The notes below the pieces were generated by a model. The model searched no databases. It had not been told where the DNA came from and saw nothing but the letters and a program-made list of their open reading frames with translations. Positions 9,444-35,883 of a stretch of DNA of 64,000 nucleotides are shown here, piece by piece (position 1 is the stretch's first letter; each line of letters starts with the position of its first letter). Location of the stretch: the IMG/VR virus record IMGVR_UViG_3300022752_005671, positions 32,001-96,000 of that record. One strand, written 5' to 3'. Origin of the DNA: a virus. The position numbers were made by a program, and so were the translations under genes.

Positions 9444-9746
9444 TTATTTCCTATCTTTTTCTTCTTGTTTTCCAAATGGAATTACAATTTTATTTGCAAT
9501 TAATAGCATAGCTTCTCTAGCATTTTTTACATCTTTTATCATCATTGTAACTACAGGATCATCAAATAAAACTGGTGATTTTAAATGTTTTGATACATCT
9601 TGATAAGATTCATCAATCATATCTAAAGACTCTTCGACTTGAGCTCCAATTTCATCAATTTTCTCCATTAACTTTAATGATTTTTTCGTCATTATAAACA
9701 AAGCGAATAAAGAAATGATGTTCGTTATTGTTAAAATGTATATCAT
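9444..9746 (-). CDS. Hypothetical protein with an N-terminal membrane anchor
   Basis: Hydrophobic MIYILTITNIISLFALFIM followed by a coiled-coil-like region. Confidence 0.6.
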   Translation of the reverse strand: MIYILTITNIISLFALFIMTKKSLKLMEKIDEIGAQVEESLDMIDESYQDVSKHLKSPVLFDDPVVTMMIKDVKNAREAMLLIANKIVIPFGKQEEKDRK

Positions 9747-10906
9747 GCAGTTAGATATCTAGAGAGTTTTTCATCATATATTTTTGAAATTTCCGAATGT
9801 CTAAATTGCTCAATTATCTTTTTTGATCCTTCTTGAGCCCATTCTTTTGGAGCAGTAGACGCGCTTCTAAACTTTAATATTTTTTTCTTGAAATCTGATT
9901 CAATTACTTCTGCCCATTTTGAGTTTTTCATAAAAATCTTATCATCTACTCTACTGGGATGAATTTCTTTTAATTCATAATCGACGCCGATGAACTTTGT
10001 ATGCTTCATAAACTCAAGATGACCAGACCAATTAGTCGCGACGACTGGTAAAGCTGATGCAGCGGCTTCTAATATCGGTAATCCGTAACCTTCTCCTCGG
10101 GTCAAAGAAACCAAAGCTTTTATTTTAGGGTGTCGATATAAAGAAGCGACGTCTTCGTCACTCATATCTCCATGAAGTAAATAAAACTTTGGGAATTGTG
10201 TTTTTCTTACTTCTTTTAAAAGAGTTTGTAGGTTTTTTAAGACGATATTTCTATCAATCTTGGTGTTTCTTCCAGAATTAGTTTTTATAATGATTCCAAC
10301 TTCTTCGTCTTTAGAAAAAGATTCGCACAACCATTTAATCGTAAAAAGTAAATTTTTTCTGTCGTTGTATGGATTGTTTCCCGTTAATTGTCCAAACAAC
10401 AAAAAATTAAACGATGTTTCTACTTCGGGTAAATCAATTTCTTTTTTTGTTGTGATTATTTCTTCGCAAAATGACTCTGGTATCACATAAGCTGGTACGT
10501 CTAAGCTAGCAGCATTTTGTAAACTTGAAAGAGCGTGTGATGAAGGAACAACGACGCATGACATCTTGTTACAAGCTGAAACCCAAGAAACGTTAGCTAC
10601 ATCTGTTTCTACTGAGGCTGTAATTCCTATGTTTGTTTTGCAAAGGTTCGGATCCCATTCATTTGGAAGTTGCAGTTGAACAGAAACATCTGCCTTATAA
10701 TCAGGACTGACTGTTCGCTCCATGATTTTTGAAATCAATCCTTCATCTTTACTTTTATCTAAAATCCAAGGAGTATCTCCCCATGGCGTTAATAAAAACT
10801 TGACGTCAATATCGTTTCTAGATAAAAGCCATTTTGCAACTTGCCGACTATGAACGCCGTATCCTGATTGAGTTAAAGCTGGTCCTCTGAAAATAACTTT
10901 TTTCAT
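9743..10906 (-). CDS. Glycosyltransferase, GT-B fold (GT4-like)
   Basis: GPALTQSGYG N-terminus and RGEGYGLPILEAAASALPVVATNWSGH (E-x7-E motif). Confidence 0.9.
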   Translation of the reverse strand: MKKVIFRGPALTQSGYGVHSRQVAKWLLSRNDIDVKFLLTPWGDTPWILDKSKDEGLISKIMERTVSPDYKADVSVQLQLPNEWDPNLCKTNIGITASVETDVANVSWVSACNKMSCVVVPSSHALSSLQNAASLDVPAYVIPESFCEEIITTKKEIDLPEVETSFNFLLFGQLTGNNPYNDRKNLLFTIKWLCESFSKDEEVGIIIKTNSGRNTKIDRNIVLKNLQTLLKEVRKTQFPKFYLLHGDMSDEDVASLYRHPKIKALVSLTRGEGYGLPILEAAASALPVVATNWSGHLEFMKHTKFIGVDYELKEIHPSRVDDKIFMKNSKWAEVIESDFKKKILKFRSASTAPKEWAQEGSKKIIEQFRHSEISKIYDEKLSRYLTA

Positions 10907-10912
10907 TTTTCC

Positions 10913-12175
10913 TCAAATCTTTGTGATTCCCCAACCTTTGTAGTTGTTCTTCCAATTTTCTGATAGATCAGTTAATGTTCTATCCCATTCTGAAATAACA
11001 TTTTCCAGATTATAGTTTTTTCTTGCGTGTTGAAGAGCTCTTTCTCCAACTTGTTTTCTTTTTTCTGGTCCCCATTCATACATTTTCATAAATGCGTTAG
11101 TTAAAGACTCATGAGTTACATAGTCTTCATAAATGTAAGGGACCATTTGATTTCCTACCAACGAGCTTGCGTCTGGATTTAATCCTATTCCAAATTGCTC
11201 TCCAGTTTCATGATCCTCTACTTGTCTTGTAAGGCCACCAGTTTTTATTGCGATGATCGGTTTTGCACACATCATTGCCTCTAATGTAGAAAGACCAAAC
11301 CCTTCATTACAGCTACGATTGATAACCGTGTCGACGCAGTTATAAAGTTTATTCATGTCTTGAAATTCAATTCTATTTTTTGAAAACACGACTGAGTCTT
11401 TTATGTTTAGCATATCAACGACATGATAAAGATTAGGACCTTCTTGATCCAAAGGCTCTGTGTGCATTATTAAAGTCGCTTTTGAGTGACCATGCTTTTC
11501 TTTTAATTGATCCATGAATTTTTTCCATGAAACTAATATGTCAGAAGGCATTTTTCTTCTAGCATTTCTGGAAACGAACATAGCAGTAAAATGATCTGTT
11601 TTGTTTTGTCCTAATAAAGATGCCTTATATTTTTTTTGTTCGTCTTCAGGTAGGGGATGGTAGACGTCAGTGGGAATTGCGTGAGGAATATAATTTGTTT
11701 TTTCAGGAAACCTCTGCTTTACCATGTCGTACGTTGGCCAATTAATACAGTTGATTAAATCTGTTGATTCATATAGAACTTTGTTAAAGTCTGGCCAAGG
11801 GTAATTGTCCCATAAATGATTATATGCTATGGGACATACTTGATGAATTTCATCCTCCATTTCCCAAGCCCAAATGAAAAACCGTGGATCTGTGAACAGA
11901 AGTAGAACATCAGGATTTTCTGTTGCAAGAACCTGACGTAACATATTTCTATCACCAAACCCATCAGTCGGTTTGATAATAAAGTCTTCATTTACTACAA
12001 CTGTCCTGTAGTCATCATGCCGAACGGCCCCACCGAAACACTTAAACTTCCATTTGCCAGTTGCAATTAATCCGTGAATTAACCATCTAGCTTGAGTTCC
12101 AACTCCAGAACTGGACAGTGGGTGGTCTGAAAGTAATAATATTGTTTTTTTCTGCATCAGTCGATATATTACCAA
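10913..12175 (-). CDS. Glycosyltransferase, GT-B fold (GT4-like); true start may be Met7 at 12157
   Basis: SDHPLSSSGVG, RNARRKMP and SCNEGFGLSTLEAMMCAKPIIA motifs. Confidence 0.9.
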   Translation of the reverse strand: MVIYRLMQKKTILLLSDHPLSSSGVGTQARWLIHGLIATGKWKFKCFGGAVRHDDYRTVVVNEDFIIKPTDGFGDRNMLRQVLATENPDVLLLFTDPRFFIWAWEMEDEIHQVCPIAYNHLWDNYPWPDFNKVLYESTDLINCINWPTYDMVKQRFPEKTNYIPHAIPTDVYHPLPEDEQKKYKASLLGQNKTDHFTAMFVSRNARRKMPSDILVSWKKFMDQLKEKHGHSKATLIMHTEPLDQEGPNLYHVVDMLNIKDSVVFSKNRIEFQDMNKLYNCVDTVINRSCNEGFGLSTLEAMMCAKPIIAIKTGGLTRQVEDHETGEQFGIGLNPDASSLVGNQMVPYIYEDYVTHESLTNAFMKMYEWGPEKRKQVGERALQHARKNYNLENVISEWDRTLTDLSENWKNNYKGWGITKI

Positions 12176-12197
12176 CTTTTAAGAAATTTGTAATAAA

Positions 12198-13016
12198 TTA
12201 AGTGCAATGCTCACTATTTTTAAATTCACAATAAGTGCAAGAATCTCTATTTTTCAATGAAATTCCTCTTTTAACTGACGTCAACATATTACTCACTACT
12301 TTGAGAGATCTTTTAATTGGTACTTCTCCTAAAGAAACAGAAAATAATTCACAATGTTCGCCAGGTTTTGCAGACTTTTTCAAAAGAACAAATCCACAAC
12401 GGACATCTTTCATTGGAACTTGCGGATTTTTTTGGCACCAATAATTCTTATAAAGAGCTAATTGAGCTTTGACCATGTCATCAGAACGTTTTTCTCTGAA
12501 CCACCCTCTAGCTGTAGTTTTCCAATCTAAAATCCAATAAATAGTTTCTCCACGTTTTCCCCTTGCTTTAATGACTCCATCGATGAAACCCTTGAAAGCT
12601 TGCGAATGATTTTCTACTGCTTCGTAGAGCTGATGTTCTGCATCAACGACTTCCCATTCAGGAAATGTTTCATCAAGAAACTTTGGTACTTCTTTTAAAA
12701 TCAGCTCTGCTTCTGTTTTGGCTTTTTCAAGCGATTGAGATGTAAAATCTGGATTACCTTCGTGAGAAGCCCACGCTTTTTCCATGTGGTTATAGGCAAC
12801 TTCTAAATCCATCTCACGGGTCAAAAGATATTTTTCGCAAGAAGCATGAACCGCTGTGCCAAAATCTAATACTGGCGATGGTTTAGAAAGATCAATTTTT
12901 TTTACATGAATCAAATTGTGGCGGTACGAACATTCTTTCCAGAGTTTCACTTCTGAAAAAGAAATGTGCGGCTTTCCTGTAGGTAAAATTTCAAAAGTGG
13001 ATGTTACTTCTTGCAT
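12198..13016 (-). CDS. PD-(D/E)XK nuclease, Cas4/RecB-like with a predicted 4Fe-4S cluster
   Basis: ISFS...CSYR, FGTAVH, GFIDGV, ILDWKT, QLALY and C-terminal CTYCEFKNSEHC (1+3 Cys arrangement). Confidence 0.85.
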   Translation of the reverse strand: MQEVTSTFEILPTGKPHISFSEVKLWKECSYRHNLIHVKKIDLSKPSPVLDFGTAVHASCEKYLLTREMDLEVAYNHMEKAWASHEGNPDFTSQSLEKAKTEAELILKEVPKFLDETFPEWEVVDAEHQLYEAVENHSQAFKGFIDGVIKARGKRGETIYWILDWKTTARGWFREKRSDDMVKAQLALYKNYWCQKNPQVPMKDVRCGFVLLKKSAKPGEHCELFSVSLGEVPIKRSLKVVSNMLTSVKRGISLKNRDSCTYCEFKNSEHCT

Positions 13017-13048
13017 TTATTGATGGTAACATCCACTTCTTATTTAGT

Positions 13049-14011
13049 TCAACCATTTGATTTCTTAGAAATTGCTCGACCGACAAGCTTCTCCCAATCT
13101 CTTTGTGGCCTGACTTCCATGTTCTTGTGCCATGCACCGTTCATAACTTTTGGATCAATACCCAAAGTTTTTGCAATTGAAATAAGTGCATTAATGTCCT
13201 TAACAAAACAACTCCCGCCGAACCCAAATGCAGGTTCTCCAGTGTCGTCTGCAGGCATTGGACCAGGAACTTTCCAATGAGAATTACCGAGACGTTTATC
13301 AAGCGTCGCATACTCAACGACCTTATCATAATCAATGTTTGCGCCTGTTTTGTCAAGAGCCGTGCATATCTGATAAAACTCGTTTGCTAGCGCCACCTTG
13401 ACTGCAAGATGCACGTTAGTGACATATTTCACCATCTCTGCGGTTGTACTAGATGTTTTGATAATTGGCACATTTGGGAATGCGGCTTCAAAGACTTGCT
13501 TCACTTTATTGATCCATGGACGAGGTCCACCGAGGATGATGCGATTTTGATTTCGCATGTCATCCACCGCGTTCGCTTCTGTCAAAAACTCAGGATTAAA
13601 AACAACGCGGAGACCGGTCTCTGAGAACTTCTTGTTCCACATCTCCACAGATCCAGGTGGGACCGTAGATTTAACAACCGCAATTCTTTCTCCAGGAACA
13701 GCAGCCAATTCAGAAAGGGCACTTTCTACGATCGAAAGGTCAGCAGAGCCATCATCATACATGGGTGTAGGAAGGCACACGAAATAAACATTAGAAAACC
13801 CCGGTGTTCCACTTTCCTCATTATCTCCAATTAATTCTGCAATGGACCCAGGATATCCAGCAACGGAATCTCCATGAGATGGCAATGCACCTTTGGCATA
13901 CTTACCCGCCTTATCATATGCATAGACGTTAAACCCTCTTTCAGAGAACACTGTCGTAAGCGAACCGCCTACAAAGCCTTGTCCAATAACTGCAATTGAT
14001 CTATTTTTCAT
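13049..14011 (-). CDS. ugd: UDP-glucose/GDP-mannose dehydrogenase family protein (short form, no C-terminal domain)
   Basis: IGQGFVGG Rossmann motif; VCLPTP, VKSTVPPG, NPEFLTE, KYVTN and GFGGSCFVKD (catalytic Cys). Confidence 0.85.
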   Translation of the reverse strand: MKNRSIAVIGQGFVGGSLTTVFSERGFNVYAYDKAGKYAKGALPSHGDSVAGYPGSIAELIGDNEESGTPGFSNVYFVCLPTPMYDDGSADLSIVESALSELAAVPGERIAVVKSTVPPGSVEMWNKKFSETGLRVVFNPEFLTEANAVDDMRNQNRIILGGPRPWINKVKQVFEAAFPNVPIIKTSSTTAEMVKYVTNVHLAVKVALANEFYQICTALDKTGANIDYDKVVEYATLDKRLGNSHWKVPGPMPADDTGEPAFGFGGSCFVKDINALISIAKTLGIDPKVMNGAWHKNMEVRPQRDWEKLVGRAISKKSNG

Positions 14012-14123
14012 AAGTTTTTTATATTAACAATCTAACGAATGTTTCATTTTTTAAAAATAGAAAAACAAACAGGAGGCGTAAACGTTTCTGGAAAATATGT
14101 TAATGAATTTTCATTTCCTATTA

Positions 14124-14813
14124 CTATTCTTTCAGGATGAGCTTCCGGGGGTAAATAATAAAACTGTTATGCTTTTTTAAGTTAGAAACTTGACACACCA
14201 TATCTGAAAAATCTTTTGGAGAATAAACTCTTTGACCGTTAAGTTCAATTCTAGAAGTTATCGCTGTCGGAACTCCAGTTATTAAGAAACCATCATCCTT
14301 TAAAACCCTGCAAAATTCTTTAATTCCTTTTTGATCTCCGTAATAATCTAGAGTGTCTCCATATCTTCCTAATCCAAAATGTTCAATCGCATGTAATGAA
14401 GTTATAACATCAAAAGTTTCTTTTTCAAATGGAAGATTTTGAGCTTCTCCTGAAAATCCTTTCAAGTTACAAATGTTTTGTACATTTAAATTTAATCCTT
14501 CAAATCTTGGCTCTAGGTACGTTACTTCAAAGAAAGAAGCAGCAAACGAAATAAAAGAAAATTGACTTCCAACGTCTAACAGCTTATTAAGATTACTATT
14601 AGAAACTCTAATTTCTAATAAAACCTTTTGAGCAACTAAGTGCATCATTGCATAAGTCCAATCAATAGAGATTGAACTTGTAGAAAAAGAAACTTTCTTT
14701 TTTTCTATGTTTTCTTGAAATATATCATTGAATTTTTCATGATTTTTTTTAGTTTCAAGAAACTTTTCAAGATAATCATAATATTCGTCCTCGTTAAACA
14801 TGGATGATATCAT
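14124..14813 (-). CDS. DUF268-like class I SAM-dependent methyltransferase, probably frameshifted near the C-terminus (alternative frame ends at 14044)
   Basis: LDVGS and SLHAIEHFGLGRYGD..D..GD...I.E..RVLK motifs. A -1 frame continuation (YYLPPEAHPERIVIGNENSLTYFPETFTPPVCFSIFKK*) fills the downstream gap. Confidence 0.75.
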   Translation of the reverse strand: MISSMFNEDEYYDYLEKFLETKKNHEKFNDIFQENIEKKKVSFSTSSISIDWTYAMMHLVAQKVLLEIRVSNSNLNKLLDVGSQFSFISFAASFFEVTYLEPRFEGLNLNVQNICNLKGFSGEAQNLPFEKETFDVITSLHAIEHFGLGRYGDTLDYYGDQKGIKEFCRVLKDDGFLITGVPTAITSRIELNGQRVYSPKDFSDMVCQVSNLKKHNSFIIYPRKLILKE

Positions 14814-15748
14814 AGTTCAGTCCAATCTTCAGGTTTAGCGCTTTCTGGTCTAATCGGGTTCTTTAACCAATTTCCATTTGCATCAACTGGCTTTTTAAAT
14901 CCTATCGGAGACGCAACTTCTTCGATCGGGTTTGGTTTGGTCGTGTCAAATTTATTTTGATTGATGTATTCATAATATTTCCACTTTGTTTCATCTTTAG
15001 CTTCCCAATATGACCCATATCTTCTGTTTCCTCTAACACGACCTTGCGTTCCTCTAGCGTCCGTATAAATTGCTATTGCTTGAGGAACTGCAGGTATTGC
15101 AGTTACATATCTTGGAAGCTTTCCTTGCGATATTAGCCCATTTATTCTGTGTCTCATTTCATTTTCTGAGTCCATTCCTCCTTCATGATTTAAGTTTCTT
15201 TCGTGCCAAGGAGAAACTTGTTCAATGACTTTTCTACTAAAAAAAGCGTCGCCCGCAAAACTGACTGGGTCTCTTGAAAGATCTGCAAAAAATTTATTTT
15301 GGCAGAACAAAGGAATTCTATCTTCAGGAAAAGGTTTGATTACATTTGCTTTATGAGTAATTTTTCTTTGTGCGTCCAAAGTAATACTACCGACGACGTC
15401 TAAATTTTTTTCATAAAAACTTATGACGTCGTCCACCCACCCATCTAAAACAAACTGCATGTCACCTTGCAACATGCATAGATAATCTCCAGTTGACTCA
15501 GAAACAATTGTGTTTAATCCTATTGCAAACTCATTAGCAAAATTTCTTTCTAATTTTCTAATGACTTTGATTCCTCTATTTTGTATTTCTTCAAGATATT
15601 CTTTTGTTCCAGGTTCAACAGAAGCATTATCAACAACAATTACTTCTTTATTGTCGTAGAGTTTTGTAGTGTCCAATAAAGATTCTAAACAACTTTTTAA
15701 ATAGAAAAGACGATTACAATTGATTATTCCAAAAGTTACTTTCTTCAT
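14810..15748 (-). CDS. Glycosyltransferase family 2 (GT-A)
   Basis: TFGIINCNR, VIVVDNAS, GLN and LQGD motifs. Confidence 0.85.
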   Translation of the reverse strand: MKKVTFGIINCNRLFYLKSCLESLLDTTKLYDNKEVIVVDNASVEPGTKEYLEEIQNRGIKVIRKLERNFANEFAIGLNTIVSESTGDYLCMLQGDMQFVLDGWVDDVISFYEKNLDVVGSITLDAQRKITHKANVIKPFPEDRIPLFCQNKFFADLSRDPVSFAGDAFFSRKVIEQVSPWHERNLNHEGGMDSENEMRHRINGLISQGKLPRYVTAIPAVPQAIAIYTDARGTQGRVRGNRRYGSYWEAKDETKWKYYEYINQNKFDTTKPNPIEEVASPIGFKKPVDANGNWLKNPIRPESAKPEDWTEL

Positions 15749-16779
15749 TTTGAAGATTCTATAATTTCATTTAAAATTGTTTTTAAATTTTTTGTTATTT
15801 TCCAGCTTGGATAATCAGATTTGAATTTACTCATATTTGAAATATAACAAATATGATCTCCTATTCTTGGTGAATCTGATAGCGTATAATTTAGAGTATG
15901 TCCCATGTCGTCTAGTTCTTTTATTATTTCTAGAATTGATGCGCTGTTTTGTCGACATCCTCCAATGTTGTAAACTTCTCCTGGTTTTGGAGATTTTAAG
16001 AATTCATGAAATGCAGTGCAAACGTCGTATGAATGAATCTGATCCCTAACTTGTTTTCCTTTATAGCCATAAATCGTATAATGCTTTTTTTGAACAGCAC
16101 ATTTTACAATATAAGATAAGAACCCATGCAATTCAACGCCTGCATGTTGAGGACCTGTCAGACATCCTCCGCGAAATATTCCAATTGGCATATTAAAATA
16201 CCTAGCATATTCTTGTGCTAAAAGATCGCCTGCGGTTTTTGAAACTCCAAATAAAGAATGAGTCGTTTGATCGATCGACATTTTTTCATCAATTCCGTTT
16301 TCAAACGCTGAATCAGCATAGTCATATCTAAATTCTTTTTCTACAAGATTTAGCTTGTTGGGGGTATCCCCATAAACTTTGTTAGTGCTGACGTGAATGA
16401 ACGGAGATTCTGGACATAATAATCTAGCAGCTTCTAATATGTTTAAAGTTCCTGTTGCATTAGTATGAAAATCATCATGAGGAATTCTTGCAGCTAGATC
16501 ATGCGAAGGTTGTGCAGCAGTATGAACGATGAAAGATGGTTTATATTTTGAAAATATTTCTTTTATTTTTTCTAAATCTCTAATGTCACAAAATTCATGA
16601 ACGTAGTTTTTATTTTCGCATAATTCTTTTGTAACATGAGAAGTATCTCCAGAAATTCCGAAGAATTGCTTTCTCATATTATTGTCTATTCCTATAACTT
16701 GATAATTTAATTTAAGAAAATGTTTTGAAACTTCAGAACCTATTAATCCAGATGAACCAGTAATTAAAACTTTTTTCAT
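15745..16779 (-). CDS. NAD-dependent epimerase/dehydratase, CDP-paratose 2-epimerase (RfbE)-like
   Basis: GSSGLIG, HTAAQPSHD, STNKVYGD, FGVSK and GCLTGPQHAGVELHGFLSY motifs. Confidence 0.85.
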   Translation of the reverse strand: MKKVLITGSSGLIGSEVSKHFLKLNYQVIGIDNNMRKQFFGISGDTSHVTKELCENKNYVHEFCDIRDLEKIKEIFSKYKPSFIVHTAAQPSHDLAARIPHDDFHTNATGTLNILEAARLLCPESPFIHVSTNKVYGDTPNKLNLVEKEFRYDYADSAFENGIDEKMSIDQTTHSLFGVSKTAGDLLAQEYARYFNMPIGIFRGGCLTGPQHAGVELHGFLSYIVKCAVQKKHYTIYGYKGKQVRDQIHSYDVCTAFHEFLKSPKPGEVYNIGGCRQNSASILEIIKELDDMGHTLNYTLSDSPRIGDHICYISNMSKFKSDYPSWKITKNLKTILNEIIESSK

Positions 16780-26921: not shown

Positions 26922-28555
26922 TTTCTCTTTAAGATTTTAGAATATTCTGGAAAATAAAGATAATCAATTCTAGTACCTAGGAAACACTTAATTGAATGAG
27001 AAACATCCTCGCATATTGGTTCTCTATCATTAAAGCTAGTGTTTAAAATGATAGGAACCCCAGACTTTTCTTTCCATTTTAGTAAGAAATTATGATACCA
27101 TTGGTTGTCTTCTTTTCTAACGGTTTGAAGTCTTGCAGTACCATCTTGATGAACTACCGCTGGGACTAATGATTTCTTTTCTTCTTTAAAATTCAATACA
27201 AATTGCATGTATGGACTTTCTTGATAGTTTAAAAACCACTCATGAGCATCTTCTTCAAGAATAGAAGGAGCAAACGGTCTGAACCATTTACGATGCTTCA
27301 CTTTTTCATTGATGATATCTTTCATATCTCCGCGGCGAGGGTCAGCAAGAATGCTTCTGTTTCCTAATGCTCTCCGACCTGATTCACTTTTTTCATTGAA
27401 TACCGCAACGATGTTTCCGGCCGCTAAAAGATCTGTCATTTGATCTAGTGTGCAGCCTGAAACGTCAACAGGAAAATTTTTAACAACATTATTAAAATGT
27501 TCTTCTCCCCAAAGTTCTCCTAAATACGGAGTAAAATTGTGTTTCCATTGAATTCTGGGATTTCCTAAAATTTCATGCCAAAGTATTTGTGCTGCTCCGA
27601 TAGGTAAACCTCCGTCATACGGAACTGGAGGTATATAAACATTTTCTATGTTATCTGGAAACCAAGATTTGATCTTTCCCATGGCAACAGAGTTTAATGC
27701 TACTCCGCCTGAAATGCATAAATTTTTTGATTTAATTGGACTAACATCTATTGCAAACTTTATAATTTGCTTCAACAATTCTTCAGTAGATGATTGTAGT
27801 CCTGCGGCAAGATCAAATTTATCTTGTTCTGATTTTCTTGCAATTGCTGCCCATGGTTCAAGATATGGATGTGAAGGATCAGCATCACTAGTTGCACCAG
27901 GAGGTTGATTATGAGGTTTCATGCTTGATGGCATAATATCGGTTGTCAACATTTTTAAAAAATCTTGGTGGTACTTTTTCGCATCACCAAATGCCGCCAT
28001 AGCCATCACCGTACCTTCTTCACCTCCTAACGGCCATCCGTTTTGAAGTTTAAAAACATATCTAGTAATTCTTGTCCAGACACCTCCGATGTTAATTTCG
28101 TAAGGTTTAAAAGTCTTTAAGTTTTTCATGGTGCAATCTTTTGCATACCATATTGTGCAAGCTGTCTCTGCACCATGTTCATCTTCAGAACCGCCGCCGT
28201 CTATTGTTAGAACAATTGCATCATCAAAATTGCTGGAATAAAATGCGTTAGCTGCATGAGATCTATGATGAGAAAAGAAATGTATTCCTCCTCCATTTTT
28301 TTCTACTATACCTTTTATTTTTTCATATGAATCTTCGTATTGCTTTAGCTTCTTTGTCGGATAAGTTGTTGCAATATGAGAAATATCATCTACATTTTCT
28401 ACTGTATCAAACATGAACTTTACTGAATCACCAGGAGGAGACTTTTCACGATTATAGCGTTCATATTCTGCGTGAATAGTTGGTTGACCATTTTCTAAAA
28501 TGCAAAATGAACAATCATGTCCAGACCAAACTCCAGCGACTTTTATAGATTTCAT
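26918..28555 (-). CDS. Carbamoyltransferase (NodU/CmcH/TobZ family)
   Basis: GHDCS, HHRSHAANAF, IDGGG, GTVMAMAAFG, SGGVALN, GRRALGNRSILADPR, FRPFAPS and VVHQDGTARLQTV...LNTSFN. Confidence 0.93.
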   Translation of the reverse strand: MKSIKVAGVWSGHDCSFCILENGQPTIHAEYERYNREKSPPGDSVKFMFDTVENVDDISHIATTYPTKKLKQYEDSYEKIKGIVEKNGGGIHFFSHHRSHAANAFYSSNFDDAIVLTIDGGGSEDEHGAETACTIWYAKDCTMKNLKTFKPYEINIGGVWTRITRYVFKLQNGWPLGGEEGTVMAMAAFGDAKKYHQDFLKMLTTDIMPSSMKPHNQPPGATSDADPSHPYLEPWAAIARKSEQDKFDLAAGLQSSTEELLKQIIKFAIDVSPIKSKNLCISGGVALNSVAMGKIKSWFPDNIENVYIPPVPYDGGLPIGAAQILWHEILGNPRIQWKHNFTPYLGELWGEEHFNNVVKNFPVDVSGCTLDQMTDLLAAGNIVAVFNEKSESGRRALGNRSILADPRRGDMKDIINEKVKHRKWFRPFAPSILEEDAHEWFLNYQESPYMQFVLNFKEEKKSLVPAVVHQDGTARLQTVRKEDNQWYHNFLLKWKEKSGVPIILNTSFNDREPICEDVSHSIKCFLGTRIDYLYFPEYSKILKRK

Positions 28556-28580: not shown

Positions 28581-29375
28581 CTAAATTCTCATTCCATTAT
28601 ACACGGTTTTTTTAAATTTATCGTTATCATCATTAATAGATTCTATGATTTTAAAATCAAGATTATTATCAATTAATAACTTAGCAAAAGCTTTTGTGTC
28701 TTTAGGCAAACACATTCCTCCATAACCACGTAAAGAATCAGAAACGTCTAAGTACATGTCTAAAGCTTTTCCTGTTTTTATATAAGCATTTTTTATAGCA
28801 TCATAATCGCAGTTTAGCTTTTTAGAAGCTTCAAAAAAAACATTGGCAAAAACTATTCTTAATGAAGCGTAAACGTTGTTGAAATATTTAAGTAATTCTG
28901 CTTCAGTAGGAGACAGTCTTACAGTTTGTTTGGGTAAAAAACCGTGAATACTTGAAATAGTTTCATAAACGTAATCGTTGTTAGTACCAATCGCTAGAAC
29001 GTTATGGTTTTTTATAAAGTCTTCGACTGCGCACCTCTCTCTTAAAAACTCAGGAACAAAGCAGATAGAATTATTGCTGTATTTTTCTACCATTGTTTGT
29101 GTAAATCCAGGTACTGCTGTTGATCTTATCGCTATGATACCAGCATAGTTTAATTCATGCAAATCATGAATTACGCTTTCAAGAATTGAAGTATCACATC
29201 CACCATCTTCTAAACTTGGTGTTGGGACGCAAATAAATACAGCTGAAGTATTCAAGACATCTTCTAACTTTGTGTTTAATTTTATGTCATGAAAAGATAC
29301 TTCATGATCTAAAGTTTCAAATCCTTTTTTATTAGCATTTCCAACGACACCAAGACCAATTATTCCTACTCGCAT
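28581..29375 (-). CDS. ugd: UDP-glucose/GDP-mannose dehydrogenase family protein (short form, second copy)
   Basis: GLGVVG, ICVPTP, IRST..PG, PEFLRE, KYFNN and GYGGMCLPKD motifs. Confidence 0.82.
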   Translation of the reverse strand: MRVGIIGLGVVGNANKKGFETLDHEVSFHDIKLNTKLEDVLNTSAVFICVPTPSLEDGGCDTSILESVIHDLHELNYAGIIAIRSTAVPGFTQTMVEKYSNNSICFVPEFLRERCAVEDFIKNHNVLAIGTNNDYVYETISSIHGFLPKQTVRLSPTEAELLKYFNNVYASLRIVFANVFFEASKKLNCDYDAIKNAYIKTGKALDMYLDVSDSLRGYGGMCLPKDTKAFAKLLIDNNLDFKIIESINDDNDKFKKTVYNGMRI

Positions 29376-30229
29376 AATAATGATTCGACCGTTCTGCGGA
29401 GTCCTTCTTCAAGATCGATTATACTATCAACATTTACAAAATTATAAAGTTTTTTTGTATCAGGACATCTTCTTTTTGCGCTTCCAAGAGGACTTTTGCG
29501 TATTTCAAGCTTATCTGGATTGACTTCCATTATTTTCATTATTATTCTTGCGACGTCACTTATTTTTACTTCTTGCTGGTTCCCAACATTCACAATTTCA
29601 TTTGTACAGTTTAAAACTAAATCATGTGTAAATTTAACTGCATCATCAATATAACAAAATGAACGTGTGTCATCCCCGTTTATGTAATACTCTCCAGTTA
29701 GTACTCTCTCTACAAACTCAGAGATAAAATGATCTTTTTGTCTTGGACCATATACGTTAAAATATCTAATGATTAACCAAGGTAATCCAGAATTTGAAAC
29801 TAAATTTTCTCCTAATGCTTTTGGAATGCTATAACTCCATCTAGGATTTAAGATGTTATCAAACATAATTGGAACTTGTTCATCAGTAGGAATTTTATAA
29901 ATTCCTTTATCTGTTGCACCATTAAAAATTTCGCATGTAGAAGTAAAAACAAATTTTGTTTTAGATCTTGAATATCTTTTTACTAGATTAAAAGTTGGAA
30001 TCGTGTTGTTAAACGCAACCATCGTTGGAGATTCATAAAAAAGTCTAGTTCCATTAGTTGCAGCCATGTGAACTAAAACATCACATTCGGGTAAGTTATT
30101 AACTACAATTTCAGAGCAAAGATCTTTTCCATCAACTAAATCTGCGGTAAAAATTTCGTTTGAATGTTTAATAAAGTCGTAATAATGACTTCCTATAAAC
30201 CCTTTATCTCCAGTTAATACTATTTTCAT
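29366..30229 (-). CDS. NAD-dependent epimerase/decarboxylase (UDP-glucuronate decarboxylase/WcaG-like)
   Basis: Start reassigned to ATG 30229 (MKIVLTGDKGFIGSH), just after the upstream stop at 30234. PRWSYSIPK (YxxxK), RYFNVYGP and DTRSFCYIDD motifs. Confidence 0.82.
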   Translation of the reverse strand: MKIVLTGDKGFIGSHYYDFIKHSNEIFTADLVDGKDLCSEIVVNNLPECDVLVHMAATNGTRLFYESPTMVAFNNTIPTFNLVKRYSRSKTKFVFTSTCEIFNGATDKGIYKIPTDEQVPIMFDNILNPRWSYSIPKALGENLVSNSGLPWLIIRYFNVYGPRQKDHFISEFVERVLTGEYYINGDDTRSFCYIDDAVKFTHDLVLNCTNEIVNVGNQQEVKISDVARIIMKIMEVNPDKLEIRKSPLGSAKRRCPDTKKLYNFVNVDSIIDLEEGLRRTVESLLCE

Positions 30230-30233
30230 AATT

Positions 30234-31142
30234 TTAAAGTTGATTAAAAAGATCTCTATATGCTTTATATCCAAATGGCAATAATATCTCTTTTACGTTA
30301 GGTATTGCAGGAATTGCCTTTATTACATCGTCATGTATTGCAGAAGATGGTAAAACTGCTTCTGCCATTCCCATGCTTCTAGAAATCATTGAAACATCTA
30401 ATAGTCCACACTCTATTAAAGATTGAGGACCCCCTTCATACCTAGAAGTAACTGGATACAAATCAAGAGTTTGATACAGCTCATTTACGATTTCTTGTGA
30501 AGGCAATTCTATGTACGTAAAAGGTATTGATAAATCGTTCAGTTTGCTAATGATATATTGCCTACGCCACCCAGATAAAACTACATGAATTGATGGAGAT
30601 GTTTCTTTTAGTTTAGTTAAATATTCAGCTAATAAATCTGGTCCTTTTTCTAATTTTGGACTTTTTAAGTCGCTTCCTTCTGTGTCTCTCTGAAATGATC
30701 CTATAACTGTTGCATCAAGAGGAATGTTATATTTTTTTCTGAATTCTTCTTTCGTACCAGTCTTTTTCCATATTTTTTGATTTGCCCAATATGGGATCAC
30801 TTTAATAGGTTTATTTGTATAACTTTCGATAAACTTTTTGGTGTGAATGCTTGGCGTGTGATAAATATGAGTAATTGAATCTCTTTCCTTAAAGTCATTA
30901 ATTTGATCAATACCAAACTTTTCAGGCACGATGTGGTGGATTGTAGTTACTACTTTTTTTGTTTTTAAAAACTGTATTGGTAAATTTCTCCAGCACCAAT
31001 CAGAAAACAACCAAATTACATCTGCTTGTCTACAATCAAAAACGCTAATATCGCTGTTGTCTTCATACCATTCTTTTGTAAATCTATCAATAATCCAGTT
31101 TTCTTTTGGAGGTAAAACGTAAACTTTATTCATGTAGATCAC
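30234..31142 (-). CDS. Glycosyltransferase GT4-like
   Basis: EKGPD and YPVTSRYEGGPQSLIECG motifs. Confidence 0.8.
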   Translation of the reverse strand: MIYMNKVYVLPPKENWIIDRFTKEWYEDNSDISVFDCRQADVIWLFSDWCWRNLPIQFLKTKKVVTTIHHIVPEKFGIDQINDFKERDSITHIYHTPSIHTKKFIESYTNKPIKVIPYWANQKIWKKTGTKEEFRKKYNIPLDATVIGSFQRDTEGSDLKSPKLEKGPDLLAEYLTKLKETSPSIHVVLSGWRRQYIISKLNDLSIPFTYIELPSQEIVNELYQTLDLYPVTSRYEGGPQSLIECGLLDVSMISRSMGMAEAVLPSSAIHDDVIKAIPAIPNVKEILLPFGYKAYRDLFNQL

Positions 31143-31161
31143 CTGAAGGTTTTAAATATTT

Positions 31162-32097
31162 TTAATTTTCTATTATTCGTTTAAAAAAATTGATGTAGTT
31201 TGATAAACAGTTTGTCATGCTGACATCAAATGGATTTTTTAATTCTTCTTTTTTTGGAAGTTTTTCAGTTATTTGAGTTATATCGATAGAAGGGGGATCA
31301 TCATAGTTTGCTAATTCAAAATTATAATCGTTCTTTTCTTTAAGAATTATTCCATAACCTTGCACTAGCTCTTTTGTTCCACCATGTTCTGAACATATAA
31401 CAGGAGTTTTTTGAGACAATGATTCAACAACAGTATTTGGACAATGATCTAGCCATGCTAGATGCAGCATCCAATTTGCTGCAGAAAATATTTCAAGACA
31501 TACTTCATGCGGTTGCGAACCAGCGTAAAAAATGTGAGGATCTGCAATTTTTGTTGCATTTGATCCCAACACTATCAGCGCTGCCGATGAATAAAAATTT
31601 CTTAAATGTTTATATAATTCTACGTTTTCGTTTAAACGTTTTTGTGGATGCCAATTTGCAGAACAGACAAACAACATTTCGTATTGCTTTCTGATTTGTT
31701 CTAATGTCGGTATATGAAATTTTTTAATTTCAGGTGCATTAATACCGTTTCTAATTATTGAACCATTTTTATGATGACCCCACCACTTCGTAGTCATTCC
31801 TTTATCAAACTCAGATTGCCATATTACTGCATCTGAATTTTGATATAGATTTTTTATTGATGAATTTTTTGTTTCAAATTCTTCTGGTTTGAACCAGATT
31901 CCATCTAGTCTTTGAACTACTTTTTTTGCTAAAGGTCTTCCTGAAGGTTCGATAAAAACTATTGAAACATCAGCTTGTCTACCATCATACAATTCAACTT
32001 CGTGACCAGACTCTATCAATCCCATTGCCAATCTTTTTGCAAAGGAGTTTGGTCCAGTTGTTGAACTCATGTTAACATTGTCTAAATGTACTTTCAT
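31162..32097 (-). CDS. Glycosyltransferase GT4-like
   Basis: TGPNSFAKRL, IIRNGI and DHCPNTVVESLSQKTPVICSEHGGTKELV motifs. Confidence 0.82.
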   Translation of the reverse strand: MKVHLDNVNMSSTTGPNSFAKRLAMGLIESGHEVELYDGRQADVSIVFIEPSGRPLAKKVVQRLDGIWFKPEEFETKNSSIKNLYQNSDAVIWQSEFDKGMTTKWWGHHKNGSIIRNGINAPEIKKFHIPTLEQIRKQYEMLFVCSANWHPQKRLNENVELYKHLRNFYSSAALIVLGSNATKIADPHIFYAGSQPHEVCLEIFSAANWMLHLAWLDHCPNTVVESLSQKTPVICSEHGGTKELVQGYGIILKEKNDYNFELANYDDPPSIDITQITEKLPKKEELKNPFDVSMTNCLSNYINFFKRIIEN

Positions 32098-32462
32098 GAT
32101 CTCTTTTTTACTTCTTGTATAAACGGAATTGCAAATGGAGTTTTATTAAACATCATAGCCATAAGAGCTAATTCTTTCGTGTTTATGTTTGAAAGATTAG
32201 CTCTTTGAGTAAAAATGTTTGGATCAAGCTCTTGTCCTCCATTAATTGTAACTGAATCATAGTACATTTGTGCAATAAAATTTACAGATTCATTGCTCAA
32301 AGGAATAGAAGATTCTTTGACAACTTCAGATAAAGAAAAGAATATATCCTGATAAATCTCAGAACAAGCTTGCGAAGTTAATTTTTCACCTTTTCTTCTT
32401 AATAGACGTTCTACTAATAATTTTGAAATTGAGTCGTGAAGAGCTTCGCCTTGTTGCATCAT
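32094..32462 (-). CDS. Hypothetical protein
   Basis: 122-aa ORF with 4-bp overlaps to both neighbours. Confidence 0.7.
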   Translation of the reverse strand: MMQQGEALHDSISKLLVERLLRRKGEKLTSQACSEIYQDIFFSLSEVVKESSIPLSNESVNFIAQMYYDSVTINGGQELDPNIFTQRANLSNINTKELALMAMMFNKTPFAIPFIQEVKKRS

Positions 32463-33196
32463 TTTACATACCCTCTATTTCTCATAAAAACTGCTTCATC
32501 TCTTTGAAAAAGAGCATCATTAGTTTGATAAGTTTCTGGAATATCATTTATTGTATAATGATACATTACTCTTGGTAAGAAAACTCTTTTTTTAGAGTGA
32601 TGTAACGCTGGTAAATAAATTGCCTGATCGCCGGCTCTTCTTATATAATTTCCGTCTTCACCACGATAGTTTTCATCTTTGACGTCATTCAATAATTTTT
32701 TTCTAAAAGTTTTTAAATGACTTGTAACCCATGGATGTTTATAAGGGTCTGAATCTTGTGACATCGGACCGCTTATATTTTTATCGCTGAATCCCCACCT
32801 GTGAGCAGTCCACAAAATATCGCAATTGCTTTGTTGATAAACTGCATCGATGATGGATAAAGCATCTAATTCAGTTAACCAATCATCAGCATCAATTCTG
32901 CAAATGATATCGTCATCATTGCACATTGAAATTCCAGTTAAAACATTTGAAACTTCCCATTTTTTTTCTGAATTCCAAATATTAATAATCTTTTTTGAAT
33001 ACTCGCTGTTCAAAATAGATTTAAATTCATTACAAATTTTTTTTGATTCTTCTAAATGATCAGACGAAGAAACATCATCAATTAAAATCAATTTCCAGTT
33101 TTCATGAGATTGACCACAAATAGAATGAAGCATTCTTGACAACGTTTTAGAAGCGTTGTACATAGGAGAAATAAATACGAAGTTATTTTTTAACAT
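32459..33196 (-). CDS. Glycosyltransferase family 2 (GT-A)
   Basis: FISPMYNA, LIDDVSS and RIDADDWL (DxD) motifs. Confidence 0.88.
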   Translation of the reverse strand: MLKNNFVFISPMYNASKTLSRMLHSICGQSHENWKLILIDDVSSSDHLEESKKICNEFKSILNSEYSKKIINIWNSEKKWEVSNVLTGISMCNDDDIICRIDADDWLTELDALSIIDAVYQQSNCDILWTAHRWGFSDKNISGPMSQDSDPYKHPWVTSHLKTFRKKLLNDVKDENYRGEDGNYIRRAGDQAIYLPALHHSKKRVFLPRVMYHYTINDIPETYQTNDALFQRDEAVFMRNRGYVK

Positions 33197-33211
33197 ATAA
33201 ATCTTATTTCA

Positions 33212-33952
33212 CTATAAGATAGAATCTTTATCACTTTCATTCCACAACATTTCATTTGCTTTTCTATAAGATTCTTGAGTTCCAGCATCAATCCATCCGC
33301 AATTGATATCAACGACTTTTCCATTTCTGTTTTTCACAAACCAGGAACTAACATCGCTAATTTCATACTCTCCTCTTGCCGAAGGTTTTAATGTGTCAAT
33401 TACTTCAAATGCTTCGCTAGTGTAACAATATAATCCTACGATAGCTTTATCGCTGGGAGGATTTTTTGGTTTTTCAATTATGTCTATAACATTGCCTTTT
33501 TTGTCATATTCAGGAACTCCAAACCTATGAGGATCTGGTACTGATTTGGCAAATAATTTAAATGAATCATTAGAGGTTTTAAACTCTTTTATTTCTTTTG
33601 AAATAAGATCATGATCGCTAAAGATATTATCTCCAAGTAGCACGGAAAATTTTTCATCTCCACAAAATACTTTACAAAGATTAAGAGCTGCGGCTATTCC
33701 ATTCGCTTTATCTTGGACTCTATAAGTCATAGAGCAATTTAAATGTTCACCTGAACCTAATGAAGATATGACTTGTCCAGCATGATCAGTTCCAGTAATA
33801 AGCATGATGTCTTGGATTCCAGAAGAAGTAAATAAATCAATCATTCTGTAAACCATAGGAACACCTGCTACTGGAAGCAAGCATTTATTGGTGGCTTTTG
33901 TTAAAGGATATAGCCGGCTTCCTACACCACCTGCAAGTATTATGCCTTTCAT
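33212..33952 (-). CDS. rmlA: Sugar-phosphate nucleotidylyltransferase (glucose-1-phosphate thymidylyltransferase-like)
   Basis: GIILAGGVGSRLYPLTK, GIAAAL, LGDN, PSARGEYEISD and WIDAGT motifs. Confidence 0.88.
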   Translation of the reverse strand: MKGIILAGGVGSRLYPLTKATNKCLLPVAGVPMVYRMIDLFTSSGIQDIMLITGTDHAGQVISSLGSGEHLNCSMTYRVQDKANGIAAALNLCKVFCGDEKFSVLLGDNIFSDHDLISKEIKEFKTSNDSFKLFAKSVPDPHRFGVPEYDKKGNVIDIIEKPKNPPSDKAIVGLYCYTSEAFEVIDTLKPSARGEYEISDVSSWFVKNRNGKVVDINCGWIDAGTQESYRKANEMLWNESDKDSIL

Positions 33953-35883
33953 TCTTTTTCTCCTAACATGATTTTAGGCTGAGTTCTATTGATTTTCAAA
34001 TGAGGAGTTAAAGTTTTTCCGTCCCATTTTCTATGCCAAATCCATCCACCTAATTTTTCTTTTAATTGTGATGCTTTTTCTGATATCATTTGATCTGTGA
34101 CTTTAGACCATGGAACATCAAACATCATATTTGATTCTGCTGTATCTTCATAAGTTTTCCCTGATAAAGATTCCCAATGCTTCGTCCAATAATCTCTATA
34201 CAGTTTTATTTTTCTTTCTAAATTATACCAGCTGTAATGGAAAACGCAAGGTAAACTATTAACTACGTTATTAAACCATGCATTATATTCTGTCAAAGCT
34301 TTTTCATTTCCTAACATTGCAGCATTTCTTGCTTGATCAGCTTCTGGAGAATAAAAGCTAACATGATTAATTCTTTCACCAGTATTTGAATCTATCATAT
34401 CGCAGCCGTCACCGGCAATTGCATAAAGATTTCCTGATTCATCATACTTGCGAAGATCTTTTGGAATTCCATGAGTAATGTTTTGTTTATTCCTGCTTAA
34501 TCTCCACTTCCATGGCATAATATCTGCTCGAACTTTTTCAGCGCTGCCCCAATACTCAATGACAGGAAGAGAGATTATATCAACGCCTTGTGGAAATTTT
34601 GAACATAAATCGATAATCTTTTGAGCATCATCTTCATGAACAATTTCATCAGAATCCATTTGCCAACAAAATGTTGATTTACACATCGAACGGGCTTCTG
34701 CTTTTTGCATTCCATCAAAAACTGCAAATCTAGGATGTGACCAATCTCTATGAACTTGTTTGATTTTAAGTTTTGATTCTTTTTCAGCTAGTGATTTTAG
34801 CTTTTCCCAAGTTCCATCAGTAGATCCTCCGTCGACGACACAAACTTCTTCGCAAAATGAAAACATTGATTGTATGCATTGTTCGAACGGATATTGTTGC
34901 TTAATGCAATTAAACACAGTAACATACCCGCTGACTGATGGACGGTAATCCATCATCTTTTTTATTCCATTCCAAAATACGTTTGGAGCGGTAAAAAGAT
35001 ATTCTTCTATCGAAGAAATATCGTCTGTCATGAACCATTCTTCTTTTGAATGTTGAACGTTATCATTTAAATGTAGCTTGCAGCCAAGAAGTTTTGCTTC
35101 GATGACCATTCTTGGACATGTATCTTTTCCTTTTGGAAGATAAACAAACCCTTCGGCATTAGAAAGCTTATCTAACATCGTTTCATAAGGAACATTCCAC
35201 ACAACTTCATGATTTTTAGAAGTTTCTTCACACCACTTTTTTGCTAAATCAGCACCTTTTACCCAAGAGTCTGATCCTAAAACTATCCAATTTTTTCTTT
35301 CAGACTTTGATGTTCTAACATGCTCTCTAAGTAACTTGATTGTTCCTAAAGTTTTTTTCGAAAAAACGCTGGATAAAACAACATTATCTTTTTCAGATAA
35401 AAATGGGAACATCCTGAGGTACCAATCTTTTTGAGCCTCTGACATCCACCACAATCCTCTGGACCCATAATAGAAAGCAGATATTAGTTTTCCATTCAAC
35501 TGTTCTTGACAGTCACAAGGTTTTCCTGCGTTTGATTCATGTTTTTCTGGAGATCTATATCGGCAATATTTGTAATCGTATTCTAGGATGCTATATTTCA
35601 AATTTCCTATAATTGTAGGAATTAATTCTGGATTAAGTTGAGAAAAATTCCCAAAGATCCAAAATTTATCTACACCTTGACGCAAAACATCCAAATCGAC
35701 GTCTTTGGCAAGAATTTTTACATGCGGCAAAGGACATTCCTCAATTAACGCCTCGGTCGTTAATTCCGCACCTCCAGTATAGTGTTCAGCAAATAAATCT
35801 GCTATGAAAATTACTTTAGAATTTTCTGGTAATGTAATTTTCGGCTTTTGGACATTAAAAATATTTTCGTTAAAGATGCTCAA
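33949..35883 (-). CDS. Bifunctional glycosyltransferase (N-terminal GT-B-like plus C-terminal GT2); TTG start
   Basis: N-half: GGAELT...KGAD...DTCPRMVIEAKLLGC. C-half: SGYVTVFN...VVDGGSTDGT...QMDSDE. GAGGA Shine-Dalgarno upstream. Confidence 0.82.
   Translation of the reverse strand: MSIFNENIFNVQKPKITLPENSKVIFIADLFAEHYTGGAELTTEALIEECPLPHVKILAKDVDLDVLRQGVDKFWIFGNFSQLNPELIPTIIGNLKYSILEYDYKYCRYRSPEKHESNAGKPCDCQEQLNGKLISAFYYGSRGLWWMSEAQKDWYLRMFPFLSEKDNVVLSSVFSKKTLGTIKLLREHVRTSKSERKNWIVLGSDSWVKGADLAKKWCEETSKNHEVVWNVPYETMLDKLSNAEGFVYLPKGKDTCPRMVIEAKLLGCKLHLNDNVQHSKEEWFMTDDISSIEEYLFTAPNVFWNGIKKMMDYRPSVSGYVTVFNCIKQQYPFEQCIQSMFSFCEEVCVVDGGSTDGTWEKLKSLAEKESKLKIKQVHRDWSHPRFAVFDGMQKAEARSMCKSTFCWQMDSDEIVHEDDAQKIIDLCSKFPQGVDIISLPVIEYWGSAEKVRADIMPWKWRLSRNKQNITHGIPKDLRKYDESGNLYAIAGDGCDMIDSNTGERINHVSFYSPEADQARNAAMLGNEKALTEYNAWFNNVVNSLPCVFHYSWYNLERKIKLYRDYWTKHWESLSGKTYEDTAESNMMFDVPWSKVTDQMISEKASQLKEKLGGWIWHRKWDGKTLTPHLKINRTQPKIMLGEKE

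Follow-up and report, generated by a model that had tools for sequence, protein, structure and literature searches.

Within a 64,000-nucleotide window (positions 32,001-96,000 of the single 187,069-bp IMG/VR virus record IMGVR_UViG_3300022752_005671; 36% GC), we find a sugar-gene island of ~26 kb at window positions 9743-35883 that consists of conserved glycosyltransferase (GT) genes at both ends and a hypervariable centre, an architecture documented over more than 130 contigs. Conserved ends around a variable centre are the pattern of exposed surface glycans under diversifying selection. The reading that we favour, tentatively and with less than even confidence, is that the island glycosylates a phage protein, probably a component of the virion.

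The record has no terminal repeat and a CheckV completeness of ~52%, and we infer a jumbo myovirus whose whole genome would measure ~340-370 kb. Open reading frames (ORFs) of the island were counted from their coordinates at a minimum of 80 residues, gene families were called with Pfam and NCBIfam, and membrane segments were sought with a 19-residue hydropathy window at a cut-off of 1.6. Related loci comprise 80 anchored on the late sigma factor and 57 anchored on the prohead protease. At the genome level, we compared five relatives, G001-G005, that are 84-100% complete; G001 is a closed genome of 369,475 bp with terminal repeats (100% complete). The Pfam absence tests were run with control matches in 10-14 of 14 reference genomes. 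Positions are those of the window unless stated otherwise.

At the end next to the sigma factor, the order sigma, 100-residue helix protein, GT-B, GT-B, PD-(D/E)XK nuclease is kept in 60-76 of the 80 sigma-anchored loci. The opposite end is formed by a 644-residue fusion glycosyltransferase, a clade-wide core gene that always faces the divergent genes for a 206-residue protein (p206) and a GroEL-like protein (47 of 57 protease-anchored loci); next come a GT2 gene (41 of 57), GT4 genes and a conserved 122-residue protein. Central gene content differs even between contigs whose sigma factors are 85-93% identical, and the sigma-to-protease distance, taken from contig coordinates, ranges from 21 to 40 kb. 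In a Pfam census, 148 cluster representatives of these centres included 13 GT2, 10 short-chain dehydrogenase/reductase (SDR), five DegT and five GT1 proteins, three GT11 fucosyltransferases, three PIG-L proteins, two each of NeuB, CMP-sugar synthetase and WbqC, and several methyltransferases. The Ugd-like gene at 13049-14011 marks the sigma-proximal start of the variable cassette and is found in 30-31 of the 80 loci at 90-94% identity, though its flanking genes are less conserved. Core proteins and GTs are ~65% identical between this phage (36% GC) and G001 (56% GC), and a 20-point GC gap at this level of core identity indicates a lineage that spans very different hosts. In G001, ~6 kb of non-sugar genes lie between the GT pair and the cassette. 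The possibility, raised with the original prediction made from this DNA, that the contig is a host/phage chimera was rejected by synteny comparison: more than 100 IMG/VR contigs show the same gene order and the same two flanks.

That prediction had also seen no Wzx/Wzy/ABC transporter, no WecA/WbaP-type priming transferase and no transmembrane helix in any GT of the island, and hydropathy and Pfam searches of the contig and its relatives agree. None of the 28 island ORFs has a hydropathy window of at least 1.6, a scan of the whole 187-kb contig (~52% of the genome) found no polytopic protein, and in the 80 related loci all 661 ORFs upstream of sigma have fewer than three hydrophobic segments. 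Closed G001, which has the same layout, encodes only five ORFs with at least three such segments, none of them Wzx-, Wzy-, WecA- or ABC-2 permease-like. PF02397 (WbaP) had no match in this contig or in G001-G005 (control positive in 10 of 14 reference genomes), PF00953 (WecA) had none in G001-G005 (control positive in 12 of 14), and PF01943 (Wzx), PF04932 (Wzy/ligase) and PF01061 (ABC-2 permease) had none in the five relatives; in this contig, PF00005 (ABC ATPase) gave only a sub-threshold match of 16.8 bits. Flippase, polymerase and priming genes elsewhere in the genome, which the original prediction had named as a refutation, were thus found neither in the available contig nor in closed G001 nor in the four other near-complete relatives. 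One candidate flippase, a half-EamA protein of G001 (138 residues, four transmembrane segments, G001 158325-158741), was rejected; it lies beside a HIT-domain protein and genes of unknown function, has no sugar gene nearby and has no homologue on this contig. Together, these data support a pathway that is wholly soluble and phage-borne.

The 644-residue protein at the right end of the island is a predicted bifunctional glycosyltransferase, since its AlphaFold2 (AF2) model holds two GT folds. In this model, residues 21-315 of the N-terminal half adopt a GT-B fold (VIA Z 19.4 against GT-B enzymes) and the C-terminal half a GT-A fold (Z 15.2 with SunS and 12.3 with SpsA). The best Foldseek matches of the GT-A half are the glycocin peptide glycosyltransferases SunS/ThuS (2e-10). 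The enzyme has more than 2500 homologue clusters, of which the best 120 are 61-98% identical over near-full length, yet a search of 50,697 deposited phage genomes gave no match, which indicates that the clade is abundant and essentially uncultured.

Between 9743 and 35883 there are 28 minus-strand ORFs with exactly 13 junctions of 4-base overlap, and every ORF from position 35883 down to 1 lies on the minus strand (Table 1). The ~29 co-directional genes and 13 overlaps originally noted are therefore confirmed, with a count of 28 genes. The RmlA-like gene, two Ugd-like genes, three SDRs, DegT with a GNAT, carbamoyltransferase, 2-oxoglutarate (2OG) oxygenase and methyltransferase listed there were borne out by Pfam and NCBIfam, while the SGNH call is weak, with a GNSH motif and a GDSL match at E 0.02. 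The 12-14 GT-like genes of GT-A and GT-B type come close to our count: Pfam recovers nine, six GT-B (starting at 9743, 10913, 25046, 25962, 30234, which is weak, and 31162) and three GT-A (14810, 32459 and the C-terminal half of 33949), and all evidence combined supports ~12 transferase genes with 12-13 GT domains, ten genes (11 domains) being firm and two to three more probable. The PD-(D/E)XK nuclease at 12198-13016, inside the stretch, had been absent from that list. A sequence search of the PDB with the core transferases returned generic GT4/GT2 matches only.

Judged from sequence, the phage encodes its own supply of nucleoside diphosphate (NDP)-sugars (RmlA-like, 4,6-dehydratase/DegT/GNAT, Ugd-like and further SDR enzymes) and tailoring enzymes that include carbamoyl-, methyl- and possibly acyltransferases. 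The SDR, GNAT and DegT genes at 15745-18385 would form a cassette for an NDP-4-acetamido-4,6-dideoxyhexose-type sugar, the sub-equivalog scores leaving the exact sugar unfixed. The C-terminal UDP-binding domain is missing from both Ugd-like genes (13049-14011 and 28581-29375), as is the N-terminal Rossmann start from the second; G001 carries a full-length, 441-residue Ugd copy besides the short form. The carbamoyltransferase has ~30% identical homologues in 136 phage records, mostly of cyanophages. The 2OG oxygenase has no homologue among 137 related loci and is unique to this genome in that comparison; its Pfam matches include no TET/JBP family. Despite a confident AF2 model, the 122-residue protein at 32094-32462 matched no known fold (best Z 5.3; BFVD E values over 0.8).

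In the favoured reading, the conserved transferases would act in the cytoplasm, where they would start and build an inner glycan on a conserved protein that the phage itself encodes, most probably part of the virion. Strain-specific outer sugars would come from the variable cassette, and the mature particle would carry a diversifying glycan coat, akin to those of giant viruses and mycobacteriophages but made with a far larger set of enzymes than in the latter. We infer attachment to the virion mainly from the conservation of the core transferases across host phyla and DNA chemistries: because the core is kept across phyla, at 36% and 56% GC and alongside differing DNA chemistries, a phage-encoded acceptor would be simpler than a host-specific one. 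We also count for this reading the proximity of the GT-A half to SunS/ThuS; the NeuB, CMP-sugar synthetase, GT11, PIG-L, WbqC, DegT and methyltransferase families on which the centre draws; the lack of export and priming genes in the searches above; and the translational coupling of the core GT pair to sigma, p127, p558 and the baseplate genes. A more specific proposal, which we put forward as a possibility, is that the island may be a viral "serotype locus" of an abundant aquatic jumbo clade, in which the conserved core would build the inner glycan of a conserved virion protein and a recombining cassette of rare-sugar genes would vary the outer glycan, with 4-amino-6-deoxyhexoses, nonulosonic acids and fucose as well as carbamoyl and methyl groups.

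Several points weigh against glycosylation of a virion protein. SunS/ThuS are barely ahead of teichoic-acid and polysaccharide GT2 enzymes, and the TM-scores are low. The soluble GT2 and GT4 enzymes of bacterial O-antigen and capsule pathways are also free of membrane segments, so this feature fits a lipid-linked acceptor as well as a protein. The GT pair is coupled to the sigma/baseplate genes in 69-76 of 80 loci, and the original prediction had noted the place of the island directly upstream of them; this position does not prove late timing, as the sigma gene must be expressed before the late genes, and the right flank (protease, helicase, PhoH, large proteins of unknown function, resolvases, primase and SbcCD) is mostly DNA metabolism. 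In the cultured phages immuto and Mel-JY01, described below, the islands adjoin replication genes and not virion genes. No late-promoter motif emerged either: neither 8-mer enrichment upstream of all genes nor inspection of every intergenic gap of at least 45 bp revealed a common motif, and there are just 7 copies of TATAAATA. All members of the clade, moreover, appear to be known from genes alone.

The candidate acceptor tracts are also weak. The "glycosylation-type" low-complexity tracts that the original prediction ascribed to two probable virion proteins do exist, as in a mucin-like Thr/Ser/Gly/Gln tract at residues ~20-70 of the 1328-residue protein encoded at 47145-51131. This protein and its three large neighbours (43655-53082) have no PHROG or Pfam match. 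The Thr-rich N terminus was rejected as a conserved acceptor; homologues carry S/T/Q spacers of variable length there, and in G001 such a spacer is almost absent. The other S/T tracts lie in a lipoprotein operon outside the window. An [ST][GA]S sequon is enriched in three baseplate-distal proteins (z 7.6, 6.4 and 4.7), but the reversed motif is nearly as frequent, and we treat the excess as local S/G/T-rich composition.

The core GT-B pair is also found, adjacent and at ~30% identity, in Flavobacterium phage immuto and Microcystis phage Mel-JY01, whose hosts belong to the Bacteroidota and the Cyanobacteria respectively and where it adjoins a PD-(D/E)XK nuclease and then further sugar genes; the sugar island of immuto comprises genes 87-101 (~11 kb). 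LR756508 and Rhodothermus phage RM378 have a homologue of 10913-12175 only. Liquid chromatography-ultraviolet-mass spectrometry of immuto_2-6A DNA showed normal dA, dC and dT and replacement of dG by fdPreQ1, with no glycosylated base reported (bioRxiv 10.1101/2023.04.13.536721).

These phages bear on DNA as the acceptor, which the original prediction had left as an option and which we now disfavour. Some or all of the GTs would then extend a glycan on 5-hydroxymethylcytosine (hmC), blocking host nucleases, a reading that we regard as very improbable. The contig does encode a ThyA-family protein (genome positions 180,773-181,774, outside the window) that matches the MilA CMP hydroxymethylase (5jnh) at 1e-43 versus 1e-22 for thymidylate synthase, and the gene is flanked by two SDR epimerases, a thymidine kinase and a dCMP deaminase. 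All five large relatives carry a ThyA-family gene, which is of the MilA type in G003 and G005. The idea that hmC is not clade-wide proved wrong, as the ThyA homologue of G001 is a T4 gp42-type dCMP hydroxymethylase (3.5e-74), and hmC is probably common in the clade. Two non-orthologous hydroxymethylases occur within this one phage clade. Phage GT-A and GT-B enzymes related to lipopolysaccharide (LPS) enzymes place mono- to trisaccharides on hmC (bioRxiv 10.1101/2023.12.21.572611), and here the PD-(D/E)XK nuclease is tightly tied to the core GT pair. In known DNA-sugar pathways, however, the genes usually sit together with that of the base-modifying enzyme, and the glycan grows no longer than a trisaccharide (Pyle et al., bioRxiv 10.1101/2023.12.21.572611), whereas no GT of the island is clustered with an enzyme that forms hmC or 5-hydroxymethyluracil: the island (genome positions 41,743-67,883) lies more than 110 kb from the hydroxymethylase, which with its own epimerases and unassigned genes likely belongs to a separate DNA-sugar module. 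Immuto has the homologous nuclease-GT-GT core and an 11-kb sugar island, yet no glycosylated base is reported for it, and this together with the distance of the hmC module makes DNA an unlikely target. Because DNA chemistry differs between these phages (fdPreQ1 for G with normal dC in immuto, two hydroxymethylase types in the clade), DNA would not be the conserved acceptor. In addition, ~12 transferases, nonulosonic-acid genes and carbamoyl and methyl tailoring go far beyond any known DNA glycan, and packaging would become difficult with a large glycan on 18% of bases.

The main rival is remodelling of the host envelope, which we consider somewhat unlikely. The soluble GTs would act at the inner membrane face on undecaprenyl-pyrophosphate (Und-PP) intermediates, with priming by a host WecA/WbaP-type enzyme and export of the altered O-antigen, capsule or exopolysaccharide by a host flippase or ABC system; this could exclude superinfecting phages, keep progeny from re-adsorbing to debris or change grazing. 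This is the standard, presumptive reading of the 15-24-gene clusters in P-SSM2, S-SCSM1 and S-SCSM2R (PMC12801897). GT2, GT4, RmlA, Ugd, DegT, NeuB, GT11 and WbqC are all families of O-antigen/capsule loci, peripheral O-antigen transferases are likewise soluble, Und-PP-GlcNAc is a widely conserved acceptor that could explain conservation across hosts, and the contig itself covers ~52% of the genome. Nevertheless, the five near-complete relatives hold no priming transferase, flippase, polymerase, ligase or ABC-2 permease, which would leave the phages dependent on hosts of different phyla for each step at the membrane. Wzx and Wzy usually accept no repeat unit but their own, the ~65% identity of core GTs between 36% and 56% GC phages implies very different hosts, and a virulent-type jumbo phage has little time for rebuilding a surface layer. 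Another cytoplasmic acceptor, be it a free oligosaccharide or glycoconjugate, a small molecule, or a protein of the host or of the phage outside the virion (such as an assembly chaperone, a compartment protein or the phage's exported lipoproteins), is unlikely in our estimate; as a variant, the two conserved ends and the cassette might serve different acceptors. Aminotransferase, carbamoyltransferase, methyltransferase and 2OG oxygenase genes are also typical of glycosylated natural-product clusters, the conserved 122-residue protein lacks a known fold match, non-sugar genes (~6 kb) split the GT pair from the cassette in G001, and the genome encodes lipoproteins with Ser/Thr-rich linkers. Neither the island nor the surveyed variable cassettes hold a scaffold enzyme (polyketide synthase, nonribosomal peptide synthetase or cyclitol synthase) or an aglycone pathway, however; the diversity pattern suits an exposed surface glycan better than a metabolite, and Sec export of a pre-glycosylated protein is unlikely.

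The island is bounded on the right by a divergent intergenic region with AGATCT palindromes that may be an operator, a putative control region for the island and the rightward genes. AGATCT also occurs upstream of the PhoH gene (~42195). The 206-residue protein encoded at 36013-36633, divergent from the island, has a hydrophobic, tail-anchor-like end and lies beside a GroEL-like gene in 44 of 57 loci. Many relatives, though not this phage, encode a ~310-residue protein with three to six hydrophobic segments in its C-terminal half, ~2.6 kb downstream of sigma; it lies between the sigma module and the baseplate genes (for example, L033:12589-13557 and L173:2144-3091) and has no Pfam match.

Table 1. 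Predicted features of the island and its immediate borders, in window coordinates
Position	Strand	Feature	Evidence
8689-9438	-	gp55-like late sigma factor	phrog_234 6.7e-6; 80/80 loci; 100-residue helix protein (9444-9746) between it and the GT pair
9444-9746	-	100-residue protein with N-terminal hydrophobic helix	hydropathy 2.24 at residue 1; 61/80 loci
9743-12175	-	core GT-B (GT4-like) pair, genes starting at 9743 and 10913	PF00534 2e-12 and 1.8e-9; 69 and 76 of 80 loci
12198-13016	-	PD-(D/E)XK exonuclease, not a sugar gene	PF12705 1.3e-17; PHROG exonuclease; 60/80 loci
13049-14011	-	Ugd-like nucleotide-sugar dehydrogenase	PF03721 and PF00984 only; TIGR03026 positions 2-295 of 413
14124-14813	-	S-adenosylmethionine-dependent methyltransferase	PF08241 6e-9
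14810-15748	-	GT2 glycosyltransferase	PF00535 2e-18
15745-16779	-	4,6-dehydratase-like SDR	PF01370 2.5e-38; RmlB 1e-36, under equivalog cut-off
16776-17249	-	GNAT N-acetyltransferase	PF00583 2.7e-12; PseH 2.6e-10, under equivalog cut-off
17243-18385	-	DegT aminotransferase	PF01041 1e-71; PseC 3.6e-61, under equivalog cut-off
18423-19388	-	GT-B-like protein	iterated hidden Markov model (HMM) ties to 25046-25987 at 7e-40
19385-20059	-	224-residue protein without family	
20056-21027	-	GDP-fucose-synthase-like SDR	PF01370 2e-39; Fcl-like 1.7e-31
21168-21863	-	weak SGNH-like protein	GDSL_2 E 0.02; N-terminal GNSH motif
21860-22672	-	probable GT-A	Atlas GT8/DUF6734 lead 0.95, a lead only
22669-23397	-	242-residue protein without family	nothing found by Pfam or iterated HMM
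23405-24172	-	2OG-Fe(II) oxygenase, prolyl-4-hydroxylase type	PF13640 4e-19
24156-25049	-	GT4-like glycosyltransferase	Atlas features 0.96; structure TM ~0.8
25046-25987	-	GT-B-type glycosyltransferase	PF13524 9e-12
25962-26921	-	GT-B-type glycosyltransferase	PF00534 4e-10
26918-28555	-	NodU/CmcH-type O-carbamoyltransferase (predicted sugar tailoring)	PF16861 4.5e-61; PF02543; NodU 6.6e-44
28581-29375	-	Ugd-like, N- and C-truncated	PF03721/PF00984 partial; NCBIfam model positions 53-301 of 413
29366-30274	-	SDR epimerase/dehydratase	PF01370 3e-26
30234-31142	-	GT-B (GT4-like), weak	PF00534 1.5e-5; 8 loci
31162-32097	-	GT-B (GT4-like), firm	PF00534 1.9e-8; 21 loci
32094-32462	-	conserved 122-residue helical protein among core transferases	17-sequence alignment with 30 invariant columns; AF2 pLDDT 87
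32459-33196	-	GT2 (GT-A) glycosyltransferase, near-core	PF00535 9e-16; 41/57 loci
33212-33952	-	RmlA-like glucose-1-phosphate nucleotidyltransferase (NDP-hexose supply)	PF00483 1e-46; TIGR01208/01207 1e-60, under equivalog cut-off; in 15 related loci
33949-35883	-	644-residue GT-B + GT-A (GT2) fusion, first gene of the leftward unit	Pfam GT2 at residues 333-442; AF2 pLDDT 87
35884-36012	.	divergent intergenic region, 129 bp	repeated AGATCT palindromes, read from sequence

In content and scale, the island matches the known sugar-gene clusters of large cyanomyoviruses. Like the T4-like phages P-SSM2, S-SCSM1 and S-SCSM2R, this is a large aquatic myovirus with NDP-sugar epimerases, Nol-type carbamoyltransferases and 2OG oxygenases; the cyanomyovirus clusters hold 15-24 genes and up to 13 soluble GTs (in S-SCSM2R, 13 glycosyltransferases among 22 cell-wall genes; PMC12801897), and function is predicted in both cases. 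Unlike the cyanomyoviruses, this lineage has a DnaE polymerase and genomes of ~340-370 kb. The cyanophage clusters are read in the literature as host-surface modification; here conserved ends and a hypervariable centre are documented. Four core glycosyltransferase groups are described in the "moraphage", another aquatic jumbo lineage (PMC12619734), and we found no evidence that it is identical with the present clade.

The island shares with bacterial O-antigen/capsule loci and flagellin glycosylation islands its enzyme families, including nucleotide-sugar genes with serial GT2/GT4 transferases, and its conserved flanks and variable centre; its relatives carry NeuB and CMP-sugar synthetase. It differs from them in its viral location and in having no priming transferase, Wzx/Wzy, ABC transporter, ligase or Maf-type transferase. 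From the Gtr serotype-conversion set (GtrA, GtrB and membrane Gtr(type)) it departs in that it encodes no membrane proteins and its GT2 genes lack C-terminal transmembrane segments. With phage DNA sugar-hypermodification clusters (T4 glucosyl-hmC; Pyle et al.) the genome shares an hmC precursor enzyme and LPS-related GT-A and GT-B transferases, unlike them with the two far apart and with more transferases than glycans ending at trisaccharides call for. The island thus lacks the defining features of Wzx/Wzy or ABC-dependent loci, of Gtr cassettes and of clustered DNA-hypermodification pathways.

By analogy, the island may work most like the virion glycosylation systems of giant viruses and mycobacteriophages. 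Mycobacteriophage systems comprise a handful of genes and use host nucleotide sugars, and giant viruses employ a 4,6-dehydratase/aminotransferase/N-acetyltransferase route to 4-amino-4,6-dideoxyhexoses. In mycobacteriophages Che8, Corndog and Myrna (Freeman et al. 2023, PMC10527164), soluble phage GTs are reported to act in the cytoplasm without a lipid carrier or export and to place a glycan on capsid and tail-tube subunits. The island likewise has soluble phage GTs without lipid-carrier or export genes; unlike the mycobacteriophages, it has ~12 GT domains together with its own sugar synthesis and tailoring, and virion attachment, shown there, is inferred here. We saw no homology to the mycobacteriophage GTs beyond generic GT4 similarity. 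Virus-encoded glycosylation is described for the fibrils of Mimivirus/Megavirinae and for the capsid N-glycans of chlorovirus PBCV-1 with its multidomain A111/114R (PMC10117803, PMC7826918, PMC9614988). Like those viruses, this lineage has virus-encoded NDP-sugar pathways, multidomain soluble transferases and clade-specific gene sets; theirs are eukaryotic-virus glycans chemically solved on identified proteins, whereas this is a bacterial virus known from genes alone. What is new here is the clade-level architecture, the export-gene check in a closed genome and the bridge to cultured phages with published DNA chemistry.

Large sugar clusters of aquatic phages date back to the first cyanomyovirus genomes. 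Immuto and Mel-JY01 keep the same core and can be grown, so the question of what such clusters glycosylate is now testable. If the host envelope is the target, these islands would be among the largest known phage programmes that rewrite the bacterial surface. If the virion is the target, the phages of lakes and seas would be clad in diversifying glycans, with consequences for adsorption, grazing and aggregation and for the way in which the immune system recognises therapeutic phages. Should the serotype-locus reading hold, glycan coats like those of giant viruses, specific to each strain, would also be found on tailed phages of Gram-negative bacteria.

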